Part shown: positions 19,477 through 64,000 of the stretch, in pieces
How positions within the stretch are numbered: position 1 is the first letter of the stretch
How the letters are laid out: each line of letters opens with the position of its first letter
Assembly (NCBI GenBank): GCA_034422115.1
Contig: DAOUJW010000017.1
Span: forward strand, 119,379-183,378
Length of the DNA: 64,000 nt
Direction: 5' to 3'
Source: Dehalococcoidia bacterium
GTDB lineage: Bacteria; Chloroflexota; Dehalococcoidia; Lucifugimonadales; UBA2985
The notes under the pieces: generated by a model
The model's input: the letters and a program-made list of their open reading frames with translations, nothing else
Database searches by the model: none
What the model was told of the DNA's origin: nothing
Position numbers and translations under genes: made by a program

Positions 19477-19929
19477 CTATCCCAGGTGGACTATTTCTAT
19501 GTCACCCCAACTTCTCTGGAGATACTCAGCGACAAGGCGGCGGTGACACTGGTCTGGCTTCTCCTCACTGCACAGCAGGCAAGCGTTGGCTATGGTGCGC
19601 TTAAGCCCCATTTTCTCAATCCGACGCTGCTCCATAAGACCCAGGAACTCGCTTTCATAGGTCTCCCAGTCCTTGTGGCCTTTACGGTATGCGTCCAGCA
19701 ACTCGCGGGTTGGCGCAAGCTCCGGTAGATGTACGTACTTAATTCGGCAGATCTTGCTCAGGAAGTACTCCAGGTCTTCCTTCTTGGTGAAACCCGCCAG
19801 CTGGGACATGTTGCTCAGGCGGACGTCTACCACCCGCTTAGCGCCTGACCTGCGCAGCAGTTCAAAAAAATCTGAAGCGGATTTCTTCGTGAACCCGATA
19901 GTATAGACTCTCAATATCCGTCCCACCAC
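19477..19929 (-). CDS. DUF488-family protein (short paralogue)
   Basis: 150 aa. VYTIGFTKKSASDFFELLRRSGAKRVVDVR...LLCSEEKPDQCHRRLVAEYL is the DUF488 pattern (IG-[HF]-[ST]...VDVR...C.E..P..CHR). Confidence 0.8.
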   Translation of the reverse strand: MVGRILRVYTIGFTKKSASDFFELLRRSGAKRVVDVRLSNMSQLAGFTKKEDLEYFLSKICRIKYVHLPELAPTRELLDAYRKGHKDWETYESEFLGLMEQRRIEKMGLKRTIANACLLCSEEKPDQCHRRLVAEYLQRSWGDIEIVHLG

Positions 19930-20546
19930 TCGGTTTCGGTATTCTGTGGACTATTGGTGACGTACGCCACCTTCTTCTCCTGGATCATGAGGGCGTCTGA
20001 GATGACCTCGGACCTGGAACGGAACAGGTCGCCATATTGCGGCAATTTCAAAGCGTCTACCAGCCGACTCATAGTGGTGTCGTGATTTTCTAGGGTTCCG
20101 TCTGCAAGGATGTGTTCAACCATTAGGTCCCGTTCCACAAGCGCTCTAGCAATCAACAACGTGCGATGGCAGTCAAGGGGCTCTTTTTCCGTACACATAA
20201 GAGCAATGCGGCGCTCGTCTGCGTTGCGAACCAGGTACGCCAGTCCGTCTTCAAACATATCCGCGTTTGCCAGACGCTCGTAAAGCACACGCCCATTGGC
20301 GTCGTAGTACGAGCTGTCCGAGGGTCTGCCTCCAAGCTCCGCGCCCAGAAAAACGTAGCCAATCCCGGCCGACTCAAGGGCCGTCTCTAGGCGGCCAAGA
20401 TTGAATTGCGTTGTATAACGGCTGTACGGCGCAGACCGGACGTCCACCACCTCATCCACTTTGTGCTGCTTCAAAAGGGTAATGAATTCCTCAAGTGAAT
20501 TGTTAGAGTGTCCGATGGTGAATACAGGGTGCTGAGTTTTGTTCAT
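19911..20546 (-). CDS. DUF488-family protein (long paralogue)
   Basis: 211 aa. VFTIGHSNNSLEEFITLLKQHKVDEVVDVRS...ALMCTEKEPLDCHRTLLIARAL. It overlaps the next DUF488 gene by 19 nt. Confidence 0.8.
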   Translation of the reverse strand: MNKTQHPVFTIGHSNNSLEEFITLLKQHKVDEVVDVRSAPYSRYTTQFNLGRLETALESAGIGYVFLGAELGGRPSDSSYYDANGRVLYERLANADMFEDGLAYLVRNADERRIALMCTEKEPLDCHRTLLIARALVERDLMVEHILADGTLENHDTTMSRLVDALKLPQYGDLFRSRSEVISDALMIQEKKVAYVTNSPQNTETEWWDGY

Positions 20547-20560
20547 TATCTTTGTAACTC

Positions 20561-21232
20561 TTAGGGATCTATGATGGCTGCTATGAGCTTGTACACATAA
20601 TCATAGAACTGACCTCCCATACTTACGGTTAGGATTACCTCGCCTTTGGGATTGCCAGCAGCGACATCATTAAAGTATTTTGTGGAATAAGCAAGATCTG
20701 TAATACGAAGTGCATATTCCTGCCCAGCGTACTGAAAATGTCCCCGCAATCTCATTGCATTTCTGGCCCATGATGTTTCCTCTGATACCTCCAGCGAGCT
20801 AACTTTAATCAATCGCAGGGAGTCCTTTAGAGATTTGGCATATTCGAAAGGGATACGATCGTTCCTTCCATTGGAGCTCTCGTATCCGCTCAACCAGAGT
20901 GGCTCTGGCGTGTGGACGAACCTTTCAAGTTGATTAGGCGAGACCCGATTAATTTTCTCCCAGTAATAGTCTGGATAAATAAGCCAGTTCTCTGTTTGGT
21001 GGTATTCTGGTTGAGCCCTCAGAACCGGTACATCCATTACATCAAGAACCTCAGGCTCACTTCCGTCTTCATACAGACGCTCTCTCCCTACCCCGCCCTC
21101 CTCTCCTGTACCTATCGGCCTCACCCACTGACCTACCTGCGCTCCGGGCAACAACTCTCTCCCAGCTATGCAGCGCCCGCCGGGCTTGTAAGAATTTGCC
21201 AAACACACAATGCGTTTATATTCCCAGGCCAT
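20561..21232 (-). CDS. Uncharacterised 223-aa protein, first gene of the DUF488 operon (possibly two OB-like halves)
   Basis: ORF with N-terminal IVCLANSYKPGGRCIAGRE...WVRPIG and a second beta-rich half ...LRLIKVSSLEV...LRGHFQYAGQEYALRITD. AT-rich: 24 of 60 G+C in 20581-20640 by my count. I cannot assign a characterised family. Confidence 0.6.
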   Translation of the reverse strand: MAWEYKRIVCLANSYKPGGRCIAGRELLPGAQVGQWVRPIGTGEEGGVGRERLYEDGSEPEVLDVMDVPVLRAQPEYHQTENWLIYPDYYWEKINRVSPNQLERFVHTPEPLWLSGYESSNGRNDRIPFEYAKSLKDSLRLIKVSSLEVSEETSWARNAMRLRGHFQYAGQEYALRITDLAYSTKYFNDVAAGNPKGEVILTVSMGGQFYDYVYKLIAAIIDP

Positions 21233-21372
21233 TGACTGAGCCTCTTTGAGAGAATCCCTTGATATTGATCATGATATACTAGCCAAGCGAATTATACAAG
21301 CACACATGTTCAACGAAACACTCCTTGCGGAATCGCCGTTTTGGTGCTACACTTTACAGCACAACGGAATAG

Positions 21373-22104
<732 letters not shown>

Positions 22105-43891: not shown

Positions 43892-43966
43892 TGGAGCGGG
43901 TGATGGGGATCGAACCCACGACAACTTGCTTGGGAAGCAAGAGCTCTACCACTGAGCTACACCCGC
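43892..43966 (-). tRNA. tRNA-Gly (anticodon CCC), CCA encoded
   Basis: The reverse complement GCGGGTGTAGCTCAGTGGTAGAGCTCTTGCTTCCCAAGCAAGTTGTCGTGGGTTCGATCCCCATCACCCGCTCCA folds into a cloverleaf: 7-bp acceptor stem, GCTC/GAGC D stem, CTTGC/GCAAG anticodon stem with loop TTCCCAA, and a GGTTCGATCC T arm. Confidence 0.93.
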
Positions 43967-44564: not shown

Positions 44565-45611
44565 CTAAGGCAGGACCTGAATCTCCGACTCGCCTCTTTC
44601 AGTGATCTCACCCACCACGCTAGCCTCCACAATCCCTCTCCGGGTCAGCTCCTGCATCAGCAGAGTCACCTTTTCCGGCGCGACGGCAATCAGCAGCCCG
44701 CCGGAGGTCTGGGCATCCGCCAGCAGCAGCTTGTCCTCCTGGGTGATTGAGGCGTCCCACGAAGTTACCAAGTCAACCGACTCAAGGTTGCGTTGCGTTC
44801 CGCCAGAAATGGCCCCCGCCTGGAGCAGCTCACGGGTCCCCTGGATGAGGGGCACTTGGGACAGGTGTATCCTGGCCGTCACTCCTGAGGCTTCGACCAT
44901 GCCCTGCAGGTGGCCCAGCAGCCCGAAGCCGGTGACGTCGGTGCAGGCGTTCGCTCCAACCTCCATCATGGCCTCCGATGCGTTCTTGTTCAACTGTGCC
45001 ATCAGGTGAACGGCCCGGGAGAGGGTGTCCGGGTCGGCTATGCCGTTCTTGCCTGCGGTCGTTATGACGCCCGAACCCAGGGGCTTGGTGAGCACCAGCG
45101 CGTCGCCGGGCCGCGCGCCCGCGTTGGTAACCTGACGCCCCGGCTCGACCATACCGGTCACCGCCATGCCGTACTTGGGTTCCTGGTCGTTCACAGTGTG
45201 GCCGCCCACAATCAGCACTCCGGCCTCCTTCGCTTTGTCGGCTCCTCCCCGCAGCACCTCTCCCAGGATGTCCACAGGCAGGTCCGTGGGGAAGCAGACC
45301 AGGTTGAGGGCAAGGACGGGCCTGCCGCCCATGGCGTATACGTCGCTGAAGGAGTTGGCCGCGGCAATGGCGCCGAAGTGCCAGGGGTCGTCCACAATGG
45401 GCGGGAAGAAGTCAACGGTGAGGACCAGGGCCGAATCCTCACCCAGCCGGTAGACGGCGGCGTCGTCTCCGGTGGCGGTCCCAACCAGAAGGTTGGGGTC
45501 CTCAAACGTGGGCAGCCGGCGCAGGACCTGCGCCAGGTCGGTTGGACTGAACTTGGAAGCTCAACCGGCGCAGTTGGCCAGGCTGGTCAGGCGTATCTGC
45601 TCACCCTGCAT
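44565..45611 (-). CDS. selD: Selenide, water dikinase (selenophosphate synthetase) containing selenocysteine (in-frame TGA at 45563-45561)
   Basis: The ORF track starts at an internal Met (45395). Reading upstream in frame gives [56 protein letters not shown]..., collinear with E. coli SelD IRLTQYSHGAGCGCKISP...DPNLLVG..DDAAVY. The TGA aligns with Cys17. ATG 45611 is preceded by GAAAGGAAGAGGGA. Confidence 0.85.
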
Positions 45612-45718
45612 TCCCTCTTCCTTTCTCGTGGACGAATCTACTCCGCTCTGCTCCAATGGTAGCACATTCTAACGACCCTTTGGGCAGATGGGCCTTCGGA
45701 AACGACGGGGCTTGTCGC

Positions 45719-50525: not shown

Positions 50526-50572
50526 CAACCTGTTAACGCAAACGAGAGCCTCAAGAAAGGGATCAAGAGAGT

Positions 50573-51679
50573 ATGGCCACAGCAGCGGTTTCGCCTGAGA
50601 TTCGCTTCAGCGACCAGTCGCTGGCTCCCGTCTGGGAGAAGGTTCGGGAGGGGGAGCGCATCTCCTTTGAGGACGGCATGACCTGCCTCCAGACCAGGGA
50701 CATCATCTCCCTGGGCCGTATGGCTAACTACGCCAAGGAGCAGATGTGGGGCGACAAGGCGTTCTTCGTGTTCAACCGCCAGATAAACCCCACCAACATC
50801 TGCGTCCTCTCCTGTACCTTCTGCGACTTCGCGAAGAAGAAGGGCGACGCCGATGCCTACGAGATGGGCATGGAGGAGATCCTGTCCAAGCTCCACGATG
50901 ACCTGCACGAAGTACACATTGTGGGCGGCCACCACCCGGACTGGCCCTTCGAGCGGTACGAGGGCATTGTGAAGGGCATCCACGAGGCGTTCCCGCACAT
51001 ACGCATCAAGGCGTGGACGGCGTCGGAGATTGACTACTTCTGCAAGCGGTTCAAGATGTCTGAGGAGGAGGTGTTTACACGGATGAAGGAGGCCGGCCTG
51101 GAGTCGATGCCCGGCGGCGGCGCGGAGGTATTCTCCAATCGCGTCCGCAAGGAGCTGTTCCCGGGCAAGAACTCCGCCGAGCGCTGGCTGGACATACATC
51201 GCATGGCCCACAACATGGGCATACCCTCCAACGCCACCCTTCTGTACGGCCACATCGAGACCTACGAGGAGCGCATCCAGCACATGATGATGCTGCGGGA
51301 GCTCCAGGACGAATCGCCCGGCTTCCTGGCCTTCATTCCCCTGGAGTACCAGGTAGGCACCACCAACCTTGTCCCGCGCCAGGCGTCGTCCGTCGAGGAC
51401 CTGCGCACCATCGCCACCTCACGCCTGATGCTGGACAACTTCCCCCACATCAAGGCCTACTGGGTGATGATCGGCGAGGAGACGGCCTCCATCGCCCTGA
51501 ACTTCGGCGCAAGCGACCTTGACGGCACAATTGGCGAAGAGCGAATTGCCCACGCCGCCCTGGCAGCAAGCCCCATCGGCCTGGCCCGTGAGCGGATGCT
51601 GCGCCTCATCCGGGACGCCGGCAAGACTCCGGTGGAGCGGGACGCCTTGTACAACGAGATCCATGTCTACGATAGCTAG
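50573..51679 (+). CDS. mqnE: Radical SAM menaquinone (futalosine pathway) enzyme, probably aminofutalosine synthase MqnE
   Basis: FVFNRQINPTNICVLSCTFCDFAKKKGDADAY CxxxCxxC cluster, CofH/MqnE-like length. The MqnE versus MqnC assignment rests on my recollection of the NPTNIC...CDF versus NYTNVC...CAFYR variants. Confidence 0.65.
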   Translation: MATAAVSPEIRFSDQSLAPVWEKVREGERISFEDGMTCLQTRDIISLGRMANYAKEQMWGDKAFFVFNRQINPTNICVLSCTFCDFAKKKGDADAYEMGMEEILSKLHDDLHEVHIVGGHHPDWPFERYEGIVKGIHEAFPHIRIKAWTASEIDYFCKRFKMSEEEVFTRMKEAGLESMPGGGAEVFSNRVRKELFPGKNSAERWLDIHRMAHNMGIPSNATLLYGHIETYEERIQHMMMLRELQDESPGFLAFIPLEYQVGTTNLVPRQASSVEDLRTIATSRLMLDNFPHIKAYWVMIGEETASIALNFGASDLDGTIGEERIAHAALAASPIGLARERMLRLIRDAGKTPVERDALYNEIHVYDS

Positions 51680-52442
51680 AGTAGGTCAGATTCCGTACCT
51701 GAACTGCGAGCCCTACTACCACGGGCTTGCCCTGGAGGGCGTGGAGCTTTGCCCCATGCCGCCAAGCTACATGGGCCCCCTGGCGCAGGCGGAGAAGCTG
51801 GACGCCGGGCCGTTCTCCCTGGTCCAGAGCTTTGACCTGGAGGACAGGTACGAGTACCTGGGCGGCATGGGAATCAGCGCCAAAGGCCCGGTGCTGAGCA
51901 TCCTCTTCTACTCCCGCGTGCCAATGGAGGAGCTGTCGGGGGCGCTGGTGGGCACGACCCGCGAGTCGGCCACGTCGGTGCAGCTTATGAAGATCATCCT
52001 GGAGCACAGGTGCGGTGTGCGGCCAAAGGAGTACACCGCTCTGGACGTGCCTGGACTGGACGCCTTCCTGCTCATCGGCGACGACGCTCTCGCCACACAC
52101 GGGCGCGTTGAGGAATACCCCTATCGCTATGACCTGGCGGAGGAGTGGTACGACTGGAAGGGCCTGCCATTCGTGTTCGCCGTGTGGATGGCGCGCAAGT
52201 CCCTGGACGACGGCGTGAAGGCGATGCTGGCCGATGGCCTGAGTAAGAACCTAGCCTGGAACATGGCGAACAACCTTGAGGCAATATCCGACAAGAGGGC
52301 GTACATGGGTATGACGCGTGAAGAGGTGGCAGGCTATCTGCGGGGGTTGCGATTCACCCTGGATGCAGAAGACATGGAGGCCATCGACGTGTTCAGACGG
52401 GAGTGGCGATCTCTCGCTGTGTTAAAGGAGGCGACGGCATGA
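51663..52442 (+). CDS. mqnA: Chorismate dehydratase MqnA
   Basis: MSTIARVGQIPYLNCEPYYHGL... (VitK2_biosynth fold). Overlaps the mqnE end. Confidence 0.75.
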   Translation: MSTIARVGQIPYLNCEPYYHGLALEGVELCPMPPSYMGPLAQAEKLDAGPFSLVQSFDLEDRYEYLGGMGISAKGPVLSILFYSRVPMEELSGALVGTTRESATSVQLMKIILEHRCGVRPKEYTALDVPGLDAFLLIGDDALATHGRVEEYPYRYDLAEEWYDWKGLPFVFAVWMARKSLDDGVKAMLADGLSKNLAWNMANNLEAISDKRAYMGMTREEVAGYLRGLRFTLDAEDMEAIDVFRREWRSLAVLKEATA

Positions 52443-53554
52443 GTGCGACAATCCAGATGAAGGACGTAGCGGAAAAGGTGCGTTCCGGGGAGAGAATCGA
52501 TCAGGAGGAAGGTCTTTACCTGCTGGAAGAGGCTCCGCTTCTGGAGCTTGGCGCGCTGGCCCAGGAGGTGCGCTTCAGGCACAACCCCAAGCCGGTGGTC
52601 ACCTTTGTCGTTGACACCAATCTGAACTACACAAACGTCTGCGATGCTTACTGCACCTTCTGCGCCTTCTATCGCACGGAGAAGGACGAGGACGCCTACA
52701 CCTACTCCGTGGAGCAGATGATGGAGATGGTGGGCAACGCGGCCAGCAAGGGCGTGACGACGGTGCTCCTCCAGGGCGGACTCAACCCCAAGCTGCCGAT
52801 GGAGTACTACGAAGACTTGGTGCGAGAGACCCGGGCGCGCTACCCCCAGGTGCTGCCCCACTTCTTCTCCGCGCCGGAGATACAGAAGATGTCTCAGGTC
52901 TCGGAGATCCCGCTATCTGAGGTATTGCGCAGGCTAAAGGACGCGGGCCAGGAGACGCTGCCCGGCGGCGGCTCCGAGGTGCTTTCGGACACGGTCAAGC
53001 ACCGGCTCAGCCGCCTGTGGCCCAAGGGCCGCGTGCAGGACTGGGTAGACGTGCACCGGGAGGCCCACAAGCTGGGCTACAGGACGACCGCCACGATGAT
53101 GTACGGCCACCTTGAGAAGCCGTCCGACCTCATCGAGCACCTGGAGCACACCCGCTCCGTCCAGGACGAGGCGCTGGCCGGCGGCCAGCCGGGGTTCACG
53201 GCCTTCATCCCCTGGAGCTACAAGCGGGAGAACACCGCCCTGGGCGCAAGGGTCAAGACTGAACAGGGCCCCAACCCCTACCTGCGCATGATTGCCCTTT
53301 CCAGGATTTACCTGGACAACGTGCAGCACATTCAGGCGTCCTGGTTCTCCGAGAGGAAGAAGACGGGCGAGGTGGCCCTCAGCTTTGGCGCGGACGACTT
53401 CGGCGGGACGCTTTTCGACGAGAACGTGATGCAGGAGGCGGGTTTCTACAACCGCACCACCGCCGACGAGGTGAAGGACATAATCCGCGATGCCGGTTTC
53501 ATGCCCGCGCAGCGCACCACCAAGTACGAGATTCTGAAGGTGTTCGACGAGTAG
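52439..53554 (+). CDS. mqnC: Radical SAM menaquinone enzyme, probably cyclic dehypoxanthinyl futalosine synthase MqnC
   Basis: FVVDTNLNYTNVCDAYCTFCAFYRTEKDEDAY. ATGA overlap with the mqnA stop. Confidence 0.65.
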   Translation: MSATIQMKDVAEKVRSGERIDQEEGLYLLEEAPLLELGALAQEVRFRHNPKPVVTFVVDTNLNYTNVCDAYCTFCAFYRTEKDEDAYTYSVEQMMEMVGNAASKGVTTVLLQGGLNPKLPMEYYEDLVRETRARYPQVLPHFFSAPEIQKMSQVSEIPLSEVLRRLKDAGQETLPGGGSEVLSDTVKHRLSRLWPKGRVQDWVDVHREAHKLGYRTTATMMYGHLEKPSDLIEHLEHTRSVQDEALAGGQPGFTAFIPWSYKRENTALGARVKTEQGPNPYLRMIALSRIYLDNVQHIQASWFSERKKTGEVALSFGADDFGGTLFDENVMQEAGFYNRTTADEVKDIIRDAGFMPAQRTTKYEILKVFDE

Positions 53555-53574
53555 GGTCGCTCGATGGAGGCAGC

Positions 53575-54402
53575 ATGTCCGTAATCCGCATAGGCCACAG
53601 CCCGGACGCCGACGACGCGTTCATGTACTACGCCATCGCCCACGGCAAGGTGCCGGTGGGTGACTACGAGGTTCAGCACGTCCTGGAGGACATCGAGAGC
53701 CTCAACAAGAGGGCGCTGAGCGGTGAGCTGGAGGGCACGGCCATCTCCGCGGGCGCATACCCCCAGGTGGCGGACAAGTACCGCATAATGAGCGTGGGCT
53801 CCTCCATTGGGCGGAATTATGGCCCCATGATCGTGGCCCGCGCCGACCGGGGCGAGACTTCCATCCAGGGCGCGCGGGTCGCCATACCGGGAACCTACAC
53901 TACGGCCTACCTTCTGTTGCGGCTGTACGCGGACGGCTTTGACCCCGTCCCAATCGACTTCGACAAGATCATGCCAGCCGTCCTCGACAAGGAGGTGGAC
54001 GCCGGTCTGCTCATACACGAGGGCCAGGTCACCTACGGCGACGCTGGTCTGGTGAAGCTGCTGGACCTGGGCGAGGCCTGGGGCCAGGACACGGGCCTGC
54101 CCATACCACTTGGCCTGGACATGGTGCGCCGCGACCTGGGTGAAGAGGTGGCGCAGCTCATGGCAGACTCCCTGCGGGACAGCATCCAGTACGCCTTTGA
54201 CCACGAGGACGAGGCGCTGGACTACGCCATTCAGTTCAGCCGAGGGATTGAGCGGGAGACCTGCCGACGCTTTGTGCGGATGTACGTCAACGACGACACG
54301 CTGGACATGGGCGAGGAGGGGAAGAGGGCCTTGGAGACGCTCTTCTCCAGGGCGGTTGAGCGCGGCATAATTGGCTCAATCCCGCCAATAGACCTGATTT
54401 AG
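53575..54402 (+). CDS. mqnD: 1,4-dihydroxy-6-naphthoate synthase MqnD
   Basis: IRIGHSPDADDAFMYYAIAHGKV...LEDIESLNKRAL...GLLIHEGQVTY is collinear with the Thermus MqnD sequence as I recall it. Confidence 0.8.
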   Translation: MSVIRIGHSPDADDAFMYYAIAHGKVPVGDYEVQHVLEDIESLNKRALSGELEGTAISAGAYPQVADKYRIMSVGSSIGRNYGPMIVARADRGETSIQGARVAIPGTYTTAYLLLRLYADGFDPVPIDFDKIMPAVLDKEVDAGLLIHEGQVTYGDAGLVKLLDLGEAWGQDTGLPIPLGLDMVRRDLGEEVAQLMADSLRDSIQYAFDHEDEALDYAIQFSRGIERETCRRFVRMYVNDDTLDMGEEGKRALETLFSRAVERGIIGSIPPIDLI

Positions 54403-58523: not shown

Positions 58524-59516
58524 TCATTCCAGCTCCGCCAGCTCCCTGGCCGAGGGCACTCCGCCAAGGCCCTCCGCCATGAGCGCGCCTCTCACCAACG
58601 CCTGGGCTACGGCCTGTGTGGCTGCGGAGCAGAGCTGCCTCATGTCCACCTCCGCCTCGCTGCGGCCCGTAGCTACGCAGAACACCACGTCGCCGTCGGA
58701 CATCGTGTGGCAGGGGCGCACGGCCAGCGCCATGCCGTCGTGGCCCATCTGCGCCAGCTTGTTGGCCTGCTCCTTGTTCAGAGTGGCGTTTGTGGCAACC
58801 ACCGCAAGGGTGGTGTTGGTGGGCGCGGCCTGCGCCTCCAGCTTGCTCTTTGGATTGGCGAGTACGTCCGTTGTGCGGAGAAAGCCCCGGTTGTCCTCGT
58901 CCCTTGGGCCTGCGACAACGCGCCCCGTGTCCGGGTCTACAACGTCGCCGATGGCGTTGACCACCGCCAGCGCTCCCACGGTTATGTCTCCAAGGTCGAT
59001 GCTGGCGGTGCCGAGGCCACCCTTGGTGCAATGCTCCCTGCCCAGCACCTTGCCCACCGTCGCGCCTGTGCCAGCGCCTACGCTGCCCTCAGCCGGCGGG
59101 CCGTCGGTGGCGTTGAGGCAGGCCGCGTAGCCGTCGTCCGCGCCGGGGCGCACCTGGTGGGTGACCAGGCCCAGGTCAAAGATGACGGCGGCGGGCACTA
59201 TGGGCACTACGCCCGCGCCTATCTTGAAGCCGAAGTTTCTCTCCTCCAGGTAGCGCATGACGCCGGATGCGGCGTCCAGCCCGTAGGCGCTGCCCCCGGT
59301 TAGGAGCACGCCCTGCACCTGCTGAACCAGGTTGCCGGGGCGCATGAGGTCGGTCTCCCGTGTGCCGGGGGCGGAGCCGCGCACGTCAACGCCGGCAACG
59401 GCTCCCTCTGGGCAGAGGACGACGGTGCAGCCCGTAGCGGCCGCCCGGTTGGTGAAGTGGCCCACGGTAATGCCGTCCACGTCCGTGATGGCGTTATGCA
59501 CGACACCGCTCCACAA
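58524..59516 (-). CDS. P1/S58-family aminopeptidase (DmpA/BapA-like)
   Basis: NAITDVDGITVGHFT...GCTVVL...VRGSAPGTRETDLL-like N-terminus and GTNTTLAVVATNA self-processing-site region. Confidence 0.8.
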   Translation of the reverse strand: MWSGVVHNAITDVDGITVGHFTNRAAATGCTVVLCPEGAVAGVDVRGSAPGTRETDLMRPGNLVQQVQGVLLTGGSAYGLDAASGVMRYLEERNFGFKIGAGVVPIVPAAVIFDLGLVTHQVRPGADDGYAACLNATDGPPAEGSVGAGTGATVGKVLGREHCTKGGLGTASIDLGDITVGALAVVNAIGDVVDPDTGRVVAGPRDEDNRGFLRTTDVLANPKSKLEAQAAPTNTTLAVVATNATLNKEQANKLAQMGHDGMALAVRPCHTMSDGDVVFCVATGRSEAEVDMRQLCSAATQAVAQALVRGALMAEGLGGVPSARELAELE

Positions 59517-63849: not shown

Positions 63850-64000
63850 CTCCAAGGCTACAAAAAGTCGCTGCAGGTTTGAAGAAGACCGTCGCAGGGT
63901 TATCTCCTACCAGCAAAGTGCTGCTAATCTCGCTATGGGCACCTTGCGCGTGGCTGCCATTCTTACTGCTGGACGGAGGGGCGGACGGGGGTATGGAAAG
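63846..64000 (+). CDS. Hypothetical ORF, 5' part only (runs off the window)
   Basis: Open frame MTPRLQKVAAGLKKTVAGLSPTSKVLLISLWAPCAWLPFLLLDGG... coupled to the preceding micro-ORF. Confidence 0.3.
   Translation, partial: MTPRLQKVAAGLKKTVAGLSPTSKVLLISLWAPCAWLPFLLLDGGADGGME

Follow-up and report, generated by a model that had tools for sequence, protein, structure and literature searches.

A selD frame with an in-frame TGA at the catalytic position and a candidate SECIS hairpin in a Dehalococcoidia bacterium

The window analysed here is a stretch of 64,000 nucleotides from a Dehalococcoidia bacterium, and the gene in question is selD on its minus strand, which contains an in-frame TGA. The window belongs to a scaffold of 494,320 bp (ENA ERZ23495174, NGUY21-1_SAMN17524325_METAG-scaffold_35), of which 10 kb beyond each window end were added to the analysis. 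From the ATG at 45611-45609 to the TAG at 44567-44565, the TGA at 45563-45561 is the sole internal stop of the frame. Translation of the 72 codons upstream of the listed open reading frame (ORF) gave, letter for letter, the string that the original prediction had proposed, including its one TGA. The listed ORF begins at 45395, 72 codons 3' of the ATG at 45611; this start had been taken for an internal methionine, but it is a GTG codon for the Val in ...PPIVDDPW.... The purine-rich run gagaaaggaagaggga (45627-45612) abuts the ATG, and a similar gaaagga motif was found 5' of the start in many orthologues. The features of the gene are as follows.

44565 to 45611, minus strand: full-length selD coding sequence, 348 codons including the predicted selenocysteine (Sec) 17, TAG stop at 44567-44565; based on the translation, hidden Markov models (HMMs), Pfam and PDB 3u0o
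45609 to 45611, minus strand: ATG, the true start codon as judged from ATG, GTG or TTG at the same site in Dehalococcoidia orthologues and from the collapse of identity just upstream
45612 to 45627, minus strand: purine-rich, Shine-Dalgarno-like run gagaaaggaagaggga, read from the sequence, with a presumed function
45561 to 45563, minus strand: UGA codon 17, predicted to be read as Sec, the catalytic residue, aligned with Cys17 of E. coli SelD
45552 to 45554, minus strand: codon 20 (AAG) for the catalytic Lys, a conserved residue of the G-U/C-x-x-K loop, aligned with Lys20 of E. coli SelD
45393 to 45395, minus strand: GTG (Val73), the spurious start of ORF finders and of the public gene call, according to the ORF list and the 276-residue public product

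The identity of the protein was examined with the extended translation, in which the TGA was replaced by Cys for HMM scoring. The protein scored 389.5 bits against NCBIfam TIGR00476 (selD; cutoff 125) and 358.4 bits against NF002098 (cutoff 299), the latter match covering residues 2-345, and the first positions of the SelD HMMs matched residues 2-7. Pfam placed AIRS (PF00586) at residues 48-155 (1.3e-29) and AIRS_C (PF02769) at residues 167-346 (1.2e-22). The best match among solved structures was E. coli SelD, 3u0o (E = 8e-79), which is colinear from residue 4 onwards (residues 4-337). In this alignment the TGA falls on Cys17 and Lys20 on Lys20, so that G-A-G-C17-G-C-K20 of E. coli stands opposite C-A-G-U17-A-S-K20. 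The A. aeolicus SelD chains 2yye and 2zod align likewise and have a Cys at the position of the TGA; the native A. aeolicus enzyme contains Sec, and the crystallised form is reported to be a Cys mutant. Since the activity of E. coli SelD needs Cys17 and Lys20, a product starting 3' of the TGA would be devoid of the catalytic loop. The HMM and structure alignments bear out that the upstream frame is SelD-like. Judged by these alignments, the frame from 45611 to 44565 encodes a member of the SelD family (selenide, water dikinase), with selenophosphate synthesis as its predicted activity.

The conservation of the TGA and of the N-terminus was tested in orthologues, for which one genome per species was scanned and 64 loci were fetched, 63 of them with a scorable codon. 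The relatives are mostly metagenome-assembled genomes (MAGs) of Dehalococcoidia and Chloroflexota, with several phyla in all, and the closest is OZ242025.1 with 96% identity. At the Sec column, TGA was found in 54 of the 63 orthologues and TGT or TGC in the other 9, and the N-terminal peptide before this codon was kept. Lys20 was present in all orthologues listed, and the Cys-type orthologues were colinear through the N-terminal region. The split between TGA and TGT/TGC is, as read from the alignment, the classical Sec/Cys signature; together with the alignment to E. coli SelD it agrees with the proposed position of the TGA at Cys17/Sec.

The start of the gene was similarly well defined. Dehalococcoidia orthologues have ATG, GTG or TTG at the position of the ATG at 45611, and the similarity stops just upstream: the 48 nt from the ATG to the TGA are 90-100% identical to close relatives, whereas the preceding 40 nt are only 25-47% identical. 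Conservation thus sets in exactly at the ATG that had been predicted behind a ribosome-binding-site-like run. At codons 6-16, synonymous and nonsynonymous codon differences between orthologues numbered 1209 and 538, respectively. The internal codon does not serve as the start in the orthologues, and the upstream codons are kept, so that a condition named as refuting the original prediction did not arise. From these codon patterns, the N-terminal extension is evidently not due to chance, and the 16 codons before the TGA are evidently under purifying selection. Many genes of the window with a high GC content at third codon positions (GC3) end in TGA; since TGA is a normal stop there, the TGA of selD would be a case of site-specific, local recoding.

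The Sec-type SelDs also differ in the placement of a second cysteine. A Cys is found at -3 (C-x-x-U) in 34 of them, including that of the window, and at +2 (U-x-C) in 15, while five have neither and none has both. This alignment pattern is suggestive of one resolving-Cys partner that can change its position.

The requirement for a selenocysteine insertion sequence (SECIS) was examined by folding the 66 nt 3' of the UGA in all Sec-type orthologues, which gave three recurrent hairpins, A, B and C. Pair counts and covariation were determined on an ungapped alignment of 50 sequences. In the numbering used, +1 is the U of the UGA, and position n corresponds to window position 45563 - (n - 1).

+28 to +48, 45536-45516, minus strand: hairpin B, the best-supported SECIS candidate, CUGGCGCAG-GUC-CUGCGCCGG, 9 bp, -15.5 kcal/mol
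+37 to +39 from the U of the UGA, 45527-45525, minus strand: apical loop GUC of hairpin B
+25 to +39, 45539-45525, minus strand: hairpin C, an alternative that excludes B, GACCUG-GCG-CAGGUC, 6 bp, -7.8 kcal/mol
+15 to +29, not intact in the window: hairpin A, GGUCC-NNN-GGACC in other lineages; in the window 3 bp, no loop G, -1.0 kcal/mol

The original prediction had placed the SECIS among alternative hairpins of the GC-rich stretch GACCTGGCGCAGGTCCTGCGCC. This stretch sits exactly at 45539-45518, where two mutually exclusive hairpins are possible, and comprises hairpin C and the 7-bp core of hairpin B. The location was therefore right as far as this core is concerned, but the best hairpin is a particular one at 45536-45516 and not alternative hairpins in general.

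The bacterial SECIS (bSECIS) rules call for a loop of 3-9 nt, a stem of 4-16 bp and a G in the first two loop positions (PMC13188914, Fig. 2 legend). They further set a spacing of 16-37 nt between the UGA and the loop and a minimum free energy (MFE) of -7.5 kcal/mol or lower (PMC13188914, Fig. 2 legend). Hairpin B falls within every one of these limits, having a 3-nt loop that starts with GU, 9 bp, -15.5 kcal/mol and 33 nt of spacing, counted from the A of the UGA (+3) to the first loop base (+37). With G-GUC-C, it matches the common loop pattern N1-G-[G/U]-N-N2 as well. When the rules were applied mechanically, a compliant hairpin was found in 49 of the 54 Sec-type sequences; 31 have the start of the loop at +37, 7 at +21 and 7 at +30/31. 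The same rules found none in the 9 Cys-type orthologues.

Hairpin B was paired in 78% of cells, and changes on both sides were seen in 7 of its 9 pairs. Its covariation score was 0.235, compared with 0.159 in shuffles (0 of 500 reached it) and no more than 0.121 for slid controls, and among 1000 shuffles of the window sequence 61 gave any compliant hairpin and 3 gave one as stable as B; these figures come from related coding sequences, whose samples are not independent, and are not probabilities. In one orthologue (L054), helix B is retained by three compensatory pairs and the peptide is changed to LTQVLS. Across the alignment, the conservation of G37 and that of U38 both exceed 90%.

The codon usage of the region pointed in the same direction. 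In 34 distinct sequences encoding LAQVL, Ala was GCG in all 34 (32% elsewhere in these genes) and Gln was CAG in all 34. Arg was CGC or CGU in 32 of 32, both of which pair with G31, and never CGG, CGA or AGR. The third base of the loop Val was free (C in 16, U in 14, G in 3 and A in 1). Synonymous sites are thus fixed where they are paired and free in the loop, as hairpin B predicts. Folding downstream of the TGA, which had been proposed as a check, therefore gave a hairpin that agrees with the bSECIS consensus, covaries and constrains synonymous sites.

Three other folds were considered and set aside. Hairpin A has little covariation support as the SECIS of the window; it is genuine in other lineages and reduced to 3 bp here, its degradation in the subclade of the window being due to the change of Pro-Glu-Asp to Pro-Thr-Asp. 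Hairpin C as a conserved SECIS pairs as often as B (78% of cells), and its covariation is no better than in shuffles. In the MFE fold of the whole region, GGCGCAG pairs with a copy of CUGCGCCGG that lies upstream, and the UGA is held in a small stem; the fold is not significant, and the Ala and Gly codons upstream vary synonymously. The element CUGCGCCGG occurs twice, just 5' of the UGA and in the 3' arm of hairpin B (45573-45565 and 45534-45528, respectively, minus strand). With varying synonymous sites, the upstream copy is apparently not selected, and a competing fold may form.

The genes for the Sec-decoding machinery were searched for on the same scaffold. ARAGORN found a tRNA-SeC with the anticodon UCA at L069 4260-4355, and Rfam RF01852 supported this tRNA-Sec with 72 bits (gathering score 47, E = 2.4e-14). 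It is located about 3.7 kb past the right end of the window (position 64000) and about 22 kb from selD. The prediction that selC should exist elsewhere in the genome was thereby borne out, and a bona fide tRNA-Sec on the scaffold supports the view that the organism decodes UGA as Sec. The only tRNA found in the window itself was tRNA-Gly(CCC), and tRNA-Sec adjoined selD in none of 60 orthologous loci. The tRNA-Sec gene is flanked by a canonical thioredoxin gene (WCGPC) and a 93-residue membrane-protein ORF, with cysN/cysD-like genes downstream, and is not linked to selA or selB. The thioredoxin was considered as a selenoprotein and is a normal WCGPC protein.

The search for selA and selB combined NCBIfam models for the ten largest ORFs with Pfam models for another 20, precomputed Pfam for genes up to 10 kb off the ends, and six-frame scans of all loci with the motifs FSGDKLLGGPQAG and GTAGH[VI]DHGK. 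In the motif scan, a linkage of selD to selA or selB was observed in none of the Dehalococcoidia loci. In the distant Sec-type relatives L033, L050 and L052, the genes selA and selB come directly after selD, and L060 has selA there. The selD genes of the Cys-type L058 and L061 also adjoin selA and/or selB.

A search for further TGA-interrupted genes, which had been suggested as a check, gave three candidates in the window, none with selenoprotein support. Two of these frames are shadows on the antisense strand of known genes, and the third (58524-58526, minus strand) leads into a separate small membrane-protein ORF after an S58 peptidase. This ORF of 64 residues stands in frame after the TGA of the peptidase, extends down to about 58330 (minus strand), is hydrophobic (MFNSIAPRLLSWGMTFSGLGIGLIV...) and has no selenoprotein features; its product is probably a small membrane protein in its own right, with the frame shared by coincidence.

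Taken together, our results make it very probable that the minus-strand frame from 45611 to 44565 is a full-length SelD of 348 residues, with Sec17 specified by the UGA at 45563-45561, with hairpin B as its SECIS and with decoding by SelB and tRNA-Sec. Translation would start at the ATG at 45611. The hairpin 3' of the UGA would form a 9-bp stem with a G-U-N apical loop, SelB would bring the Sec-tRNA(Sec) encoded about 22 kb away on the scaffold, and translation would thereby go on past the UGA with no termination. The hairpin, lying within the coding sequence, would dictate the peptide L-A-Q-V-L-R and its codon choice. We infer Sec insertion and the binding of SelB to hairpin B, with selA and selB elsewhere in the genome.

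Several observations weigh against this reading. Neither selA nor selB turned up in the window or in 10 kb on each side; the search covered 104 kb of the genome. The Rfam SECIS families had no match over the window at the gathering threshold and none at E <= 10 over 45440-45640, where only noise-level matches appeared; this null result means that the hairpin is outside the curated Rfam families and is not proof against a SECIS. The MFE of the whole region is not unusual (z = -1.43). The loop of hairpin B at +37 is near the far end of the 16-37 nt spacing range, and hairpin C and the upstream copy of CUGCGCCGG can compete for its bases. Compared with the SECIS of E. coli fdhF, no bulged U is evident and the loop, 33 nt after the UGA, is far more distal; the minimal element of fdhF starts 11 nt after its UGA. 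The dependence among the samples of the covariation and shuffle statistics, given above with the scores, belongs to the same side.

The nature of the SelB-binding element is the point on which another explanation has the most to offer. Sec-selD may hold while the element is hairpin C (45539-45525), or a composite of a degenerate +21 hairpin and B. Hairpin C also complies with the bSECIS rules (-7.8 kcal/mol, loop GCG, 27 nt of spacing), its loop position is nearer to the E. coli paradigm, and L012 and L059 have it as their best hairpin (loop at +31). In L019, L021 and L022, which are without B, a neighbouring stem is used, and its 5-nt loop is at +30; other lineages have a hairpin with the loop at +21 (7 sequences). 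On the other hand, the covariation of hairpin C is not above that of the shuffles, and its pair 25-39 is broken by the Val codons GUG and GUA, while the same base is free in the loop of B. In the window, the stability of C is 7.7 kcal/mol below that of B, and the +21 hairpin of the subclade is down to 3 bp without a loop G, at -1.0 kcal/mol. We consider such an element unlikely and keep hairpin B as the candidate.

A different objection concerns the TGA itself, which could be a true stop, so that a truncated SelD-like product is made from an internal codon, as in the 276-residue public call, or the gene is a pseudogene. All automated gene calls in the databases are truncated, and selA and selB were not located in the 104 kb searched. 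The truncated product, however, is without the loop bearing Sec/Cys17 and Lys20, and the TGA and the preceding 16 codons are kept across 54 orthologues under purifying selection. The truncated calls begin at differing, non-homologous codons from genome to genome (MLRRLP, MGEDSAL, MDDPW, MAQVLR), the Cys-type orthologues are colinear and a tRNA-Sec is present, which leaves a true stop an extremely improbable explanation. Alternatively, the UGA could be read through without Sec machinery, by a near-cognate Trp or Cys tRNA or after a lineage-wide reassignment, giving a non-selenium residue 17. The sole support for this is again the negative search for selA and selB in the 104 kb. A lineage-wide reassignment conflicts with the many well-supported genes of the window that TGA terminates, and any such read-through conflicts with the dedicated tRNA-Sec encoded nearby and with the SECIS-compliant hairpin, which is under RNA-level selection after the UGA only in the TGA-type orthologues. 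We regard this as very unlikely, and the decoding of the UGA as Sec remains by far the preferred reading.

The consequences for annotation are immediate. On the source scaffold, selD is publicly called as a truncated product of 276 residues. The best 120 matches in a collection of 5.8 billion proteins, the product of the window (P0005) included, were all N-terminally truncated, with 276-328 residues and 79-94% coverage, and their starts were varied, non-homologous codons after the TGA. The Sec-SelD of the Dehalococcoidia clade of the window is systematically mis-annotated: gene callers drop the essential N-terminus because of the in-frame TGA, which very probably encodes Sec. Truncated calls without the catalytic loop would mislead functional or structural inference, and in trait surveys they would hide the Sec-decoding trait of the clade. 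As a clean and well-controlled case from comparative data, a SECIS within an ORF that constrains both codons and peptide could serve to train or validate bacterial SECIS predictors.

We tentatively propose, with somewhat more doubt than conviction, that the +37 hairpin is a distinct class of SelD SECIS across Dehalococcoidia, Anaerolineae, Actinomycetota and Gemmatimonadota. It would occur together with the more canonical hairpin at +21 in some lineages and would be the sole SECIS in the subclade of the window, after decay of the +21 hairpin through the change of Pro-Glu-Asp to Pro-Thr-Asp. If true, this would be a natural switch of SECIS position within one gene family and a case of an RNA element dictating six amino acids of an enzyme. 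As a conjecture, SelD may also be the selenoprotein through which the Sec trait is maintained in these marine or sponge-type Dehalococcoidia.

Other features of the window were observed on the way. A tRNA-Gly(CCC) gene at 43892-43966 (minus strand), about 0.6 kb downstream of selD, is near selD in most of the orthologous loci of Dehalococcoidia, indicating conserved synteny. A PyrR binding-site RNA at 21399-21514 (plus strand; Rfam RF00515, 54.2 bits, just over the gathering score of 54) heads an apparent pyrimidine biosynthesis operon with an ORF of pyrR size followed by a carB-sized ORF of 1107 residues. At 19477-21268 (minus strand), three consecutive ORFs have a GC3 of 0.47-0.66, compared with about 0.8 typical of the window, and may have been horizontally acquired. 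Two tandem pairs at 50537-54402 (plus strand), each consisting of a radical-SAM CofH/MqnC-like gene and a VitK2_biosynth (futalosine-pathway) gene, suggest that menaquinone is synthesised via futalosine.

Among known systems, Sec-containing SelD is exemplified by the Aquifex aeolicus and Haemophilus influenzae enzymes, with SEPHS2 as the eukaryotic counterpart. No other bacterial selenoproteins are as widespread as FdhA and SelD (PMC1794560), and SelD ranks second among those of prokaryotes (PMC13188914; PMC1794560). Sec-decoding organisms without FdhA all have a Sec-SelD (PMC1794560), and Chloroflexi were on the list of selenoprotein-containing groups by 2006. Because Sec-SelD is one of the two commonest bacterial selenoproteins, the gene described here holds little biological novelty.

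Compared with the Sec-SelD family, the protein has the same AIRS/AIRS_C fold family and matches the same equivalog HMMs. It is alike in the predicted Sec at the catalytic site of the flexible N-terminal loop, with a Lys three residues on, and in the in-frame hairpin after the UGA. It differs in the loop, which is C-A-G-U-A-S-K with Cys at -3 and not the known G-A-G-U-A-C-K with Cys at +2, and in the loop position of the candidate SECIS, +37 compared with about +21. It also comes from an uncultured Dehalococcoidia (Chloroflexota) MAG, in which selD is unlinked to selA and selB. With E. coli SelD (3u0o) it shares the motifs DPNLLVG and DDAAVY, whereas the E. coli protein has a Cys (TGC) together with Cys19 and no SECIS; the peptide after the loop is VLETIL in E. 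coli and the apparently RNA-constrained LAQVLR in the window. With the bSECIS consensus (bSECISearch, Zhang and Gladyshev, per PMC13188914) and the SECIS of E. coli fdhF, the gene shares a stem-loop within the ORF just 3' of the UGA and a small, G-C-closed apical loop starting with G-U on a stable upper stem. In conclusion, as far as can be read from its sequence, this selD is a textbook selenoprotein gene in every feature of family membership that was checked, and its differences from the known systems are minor.

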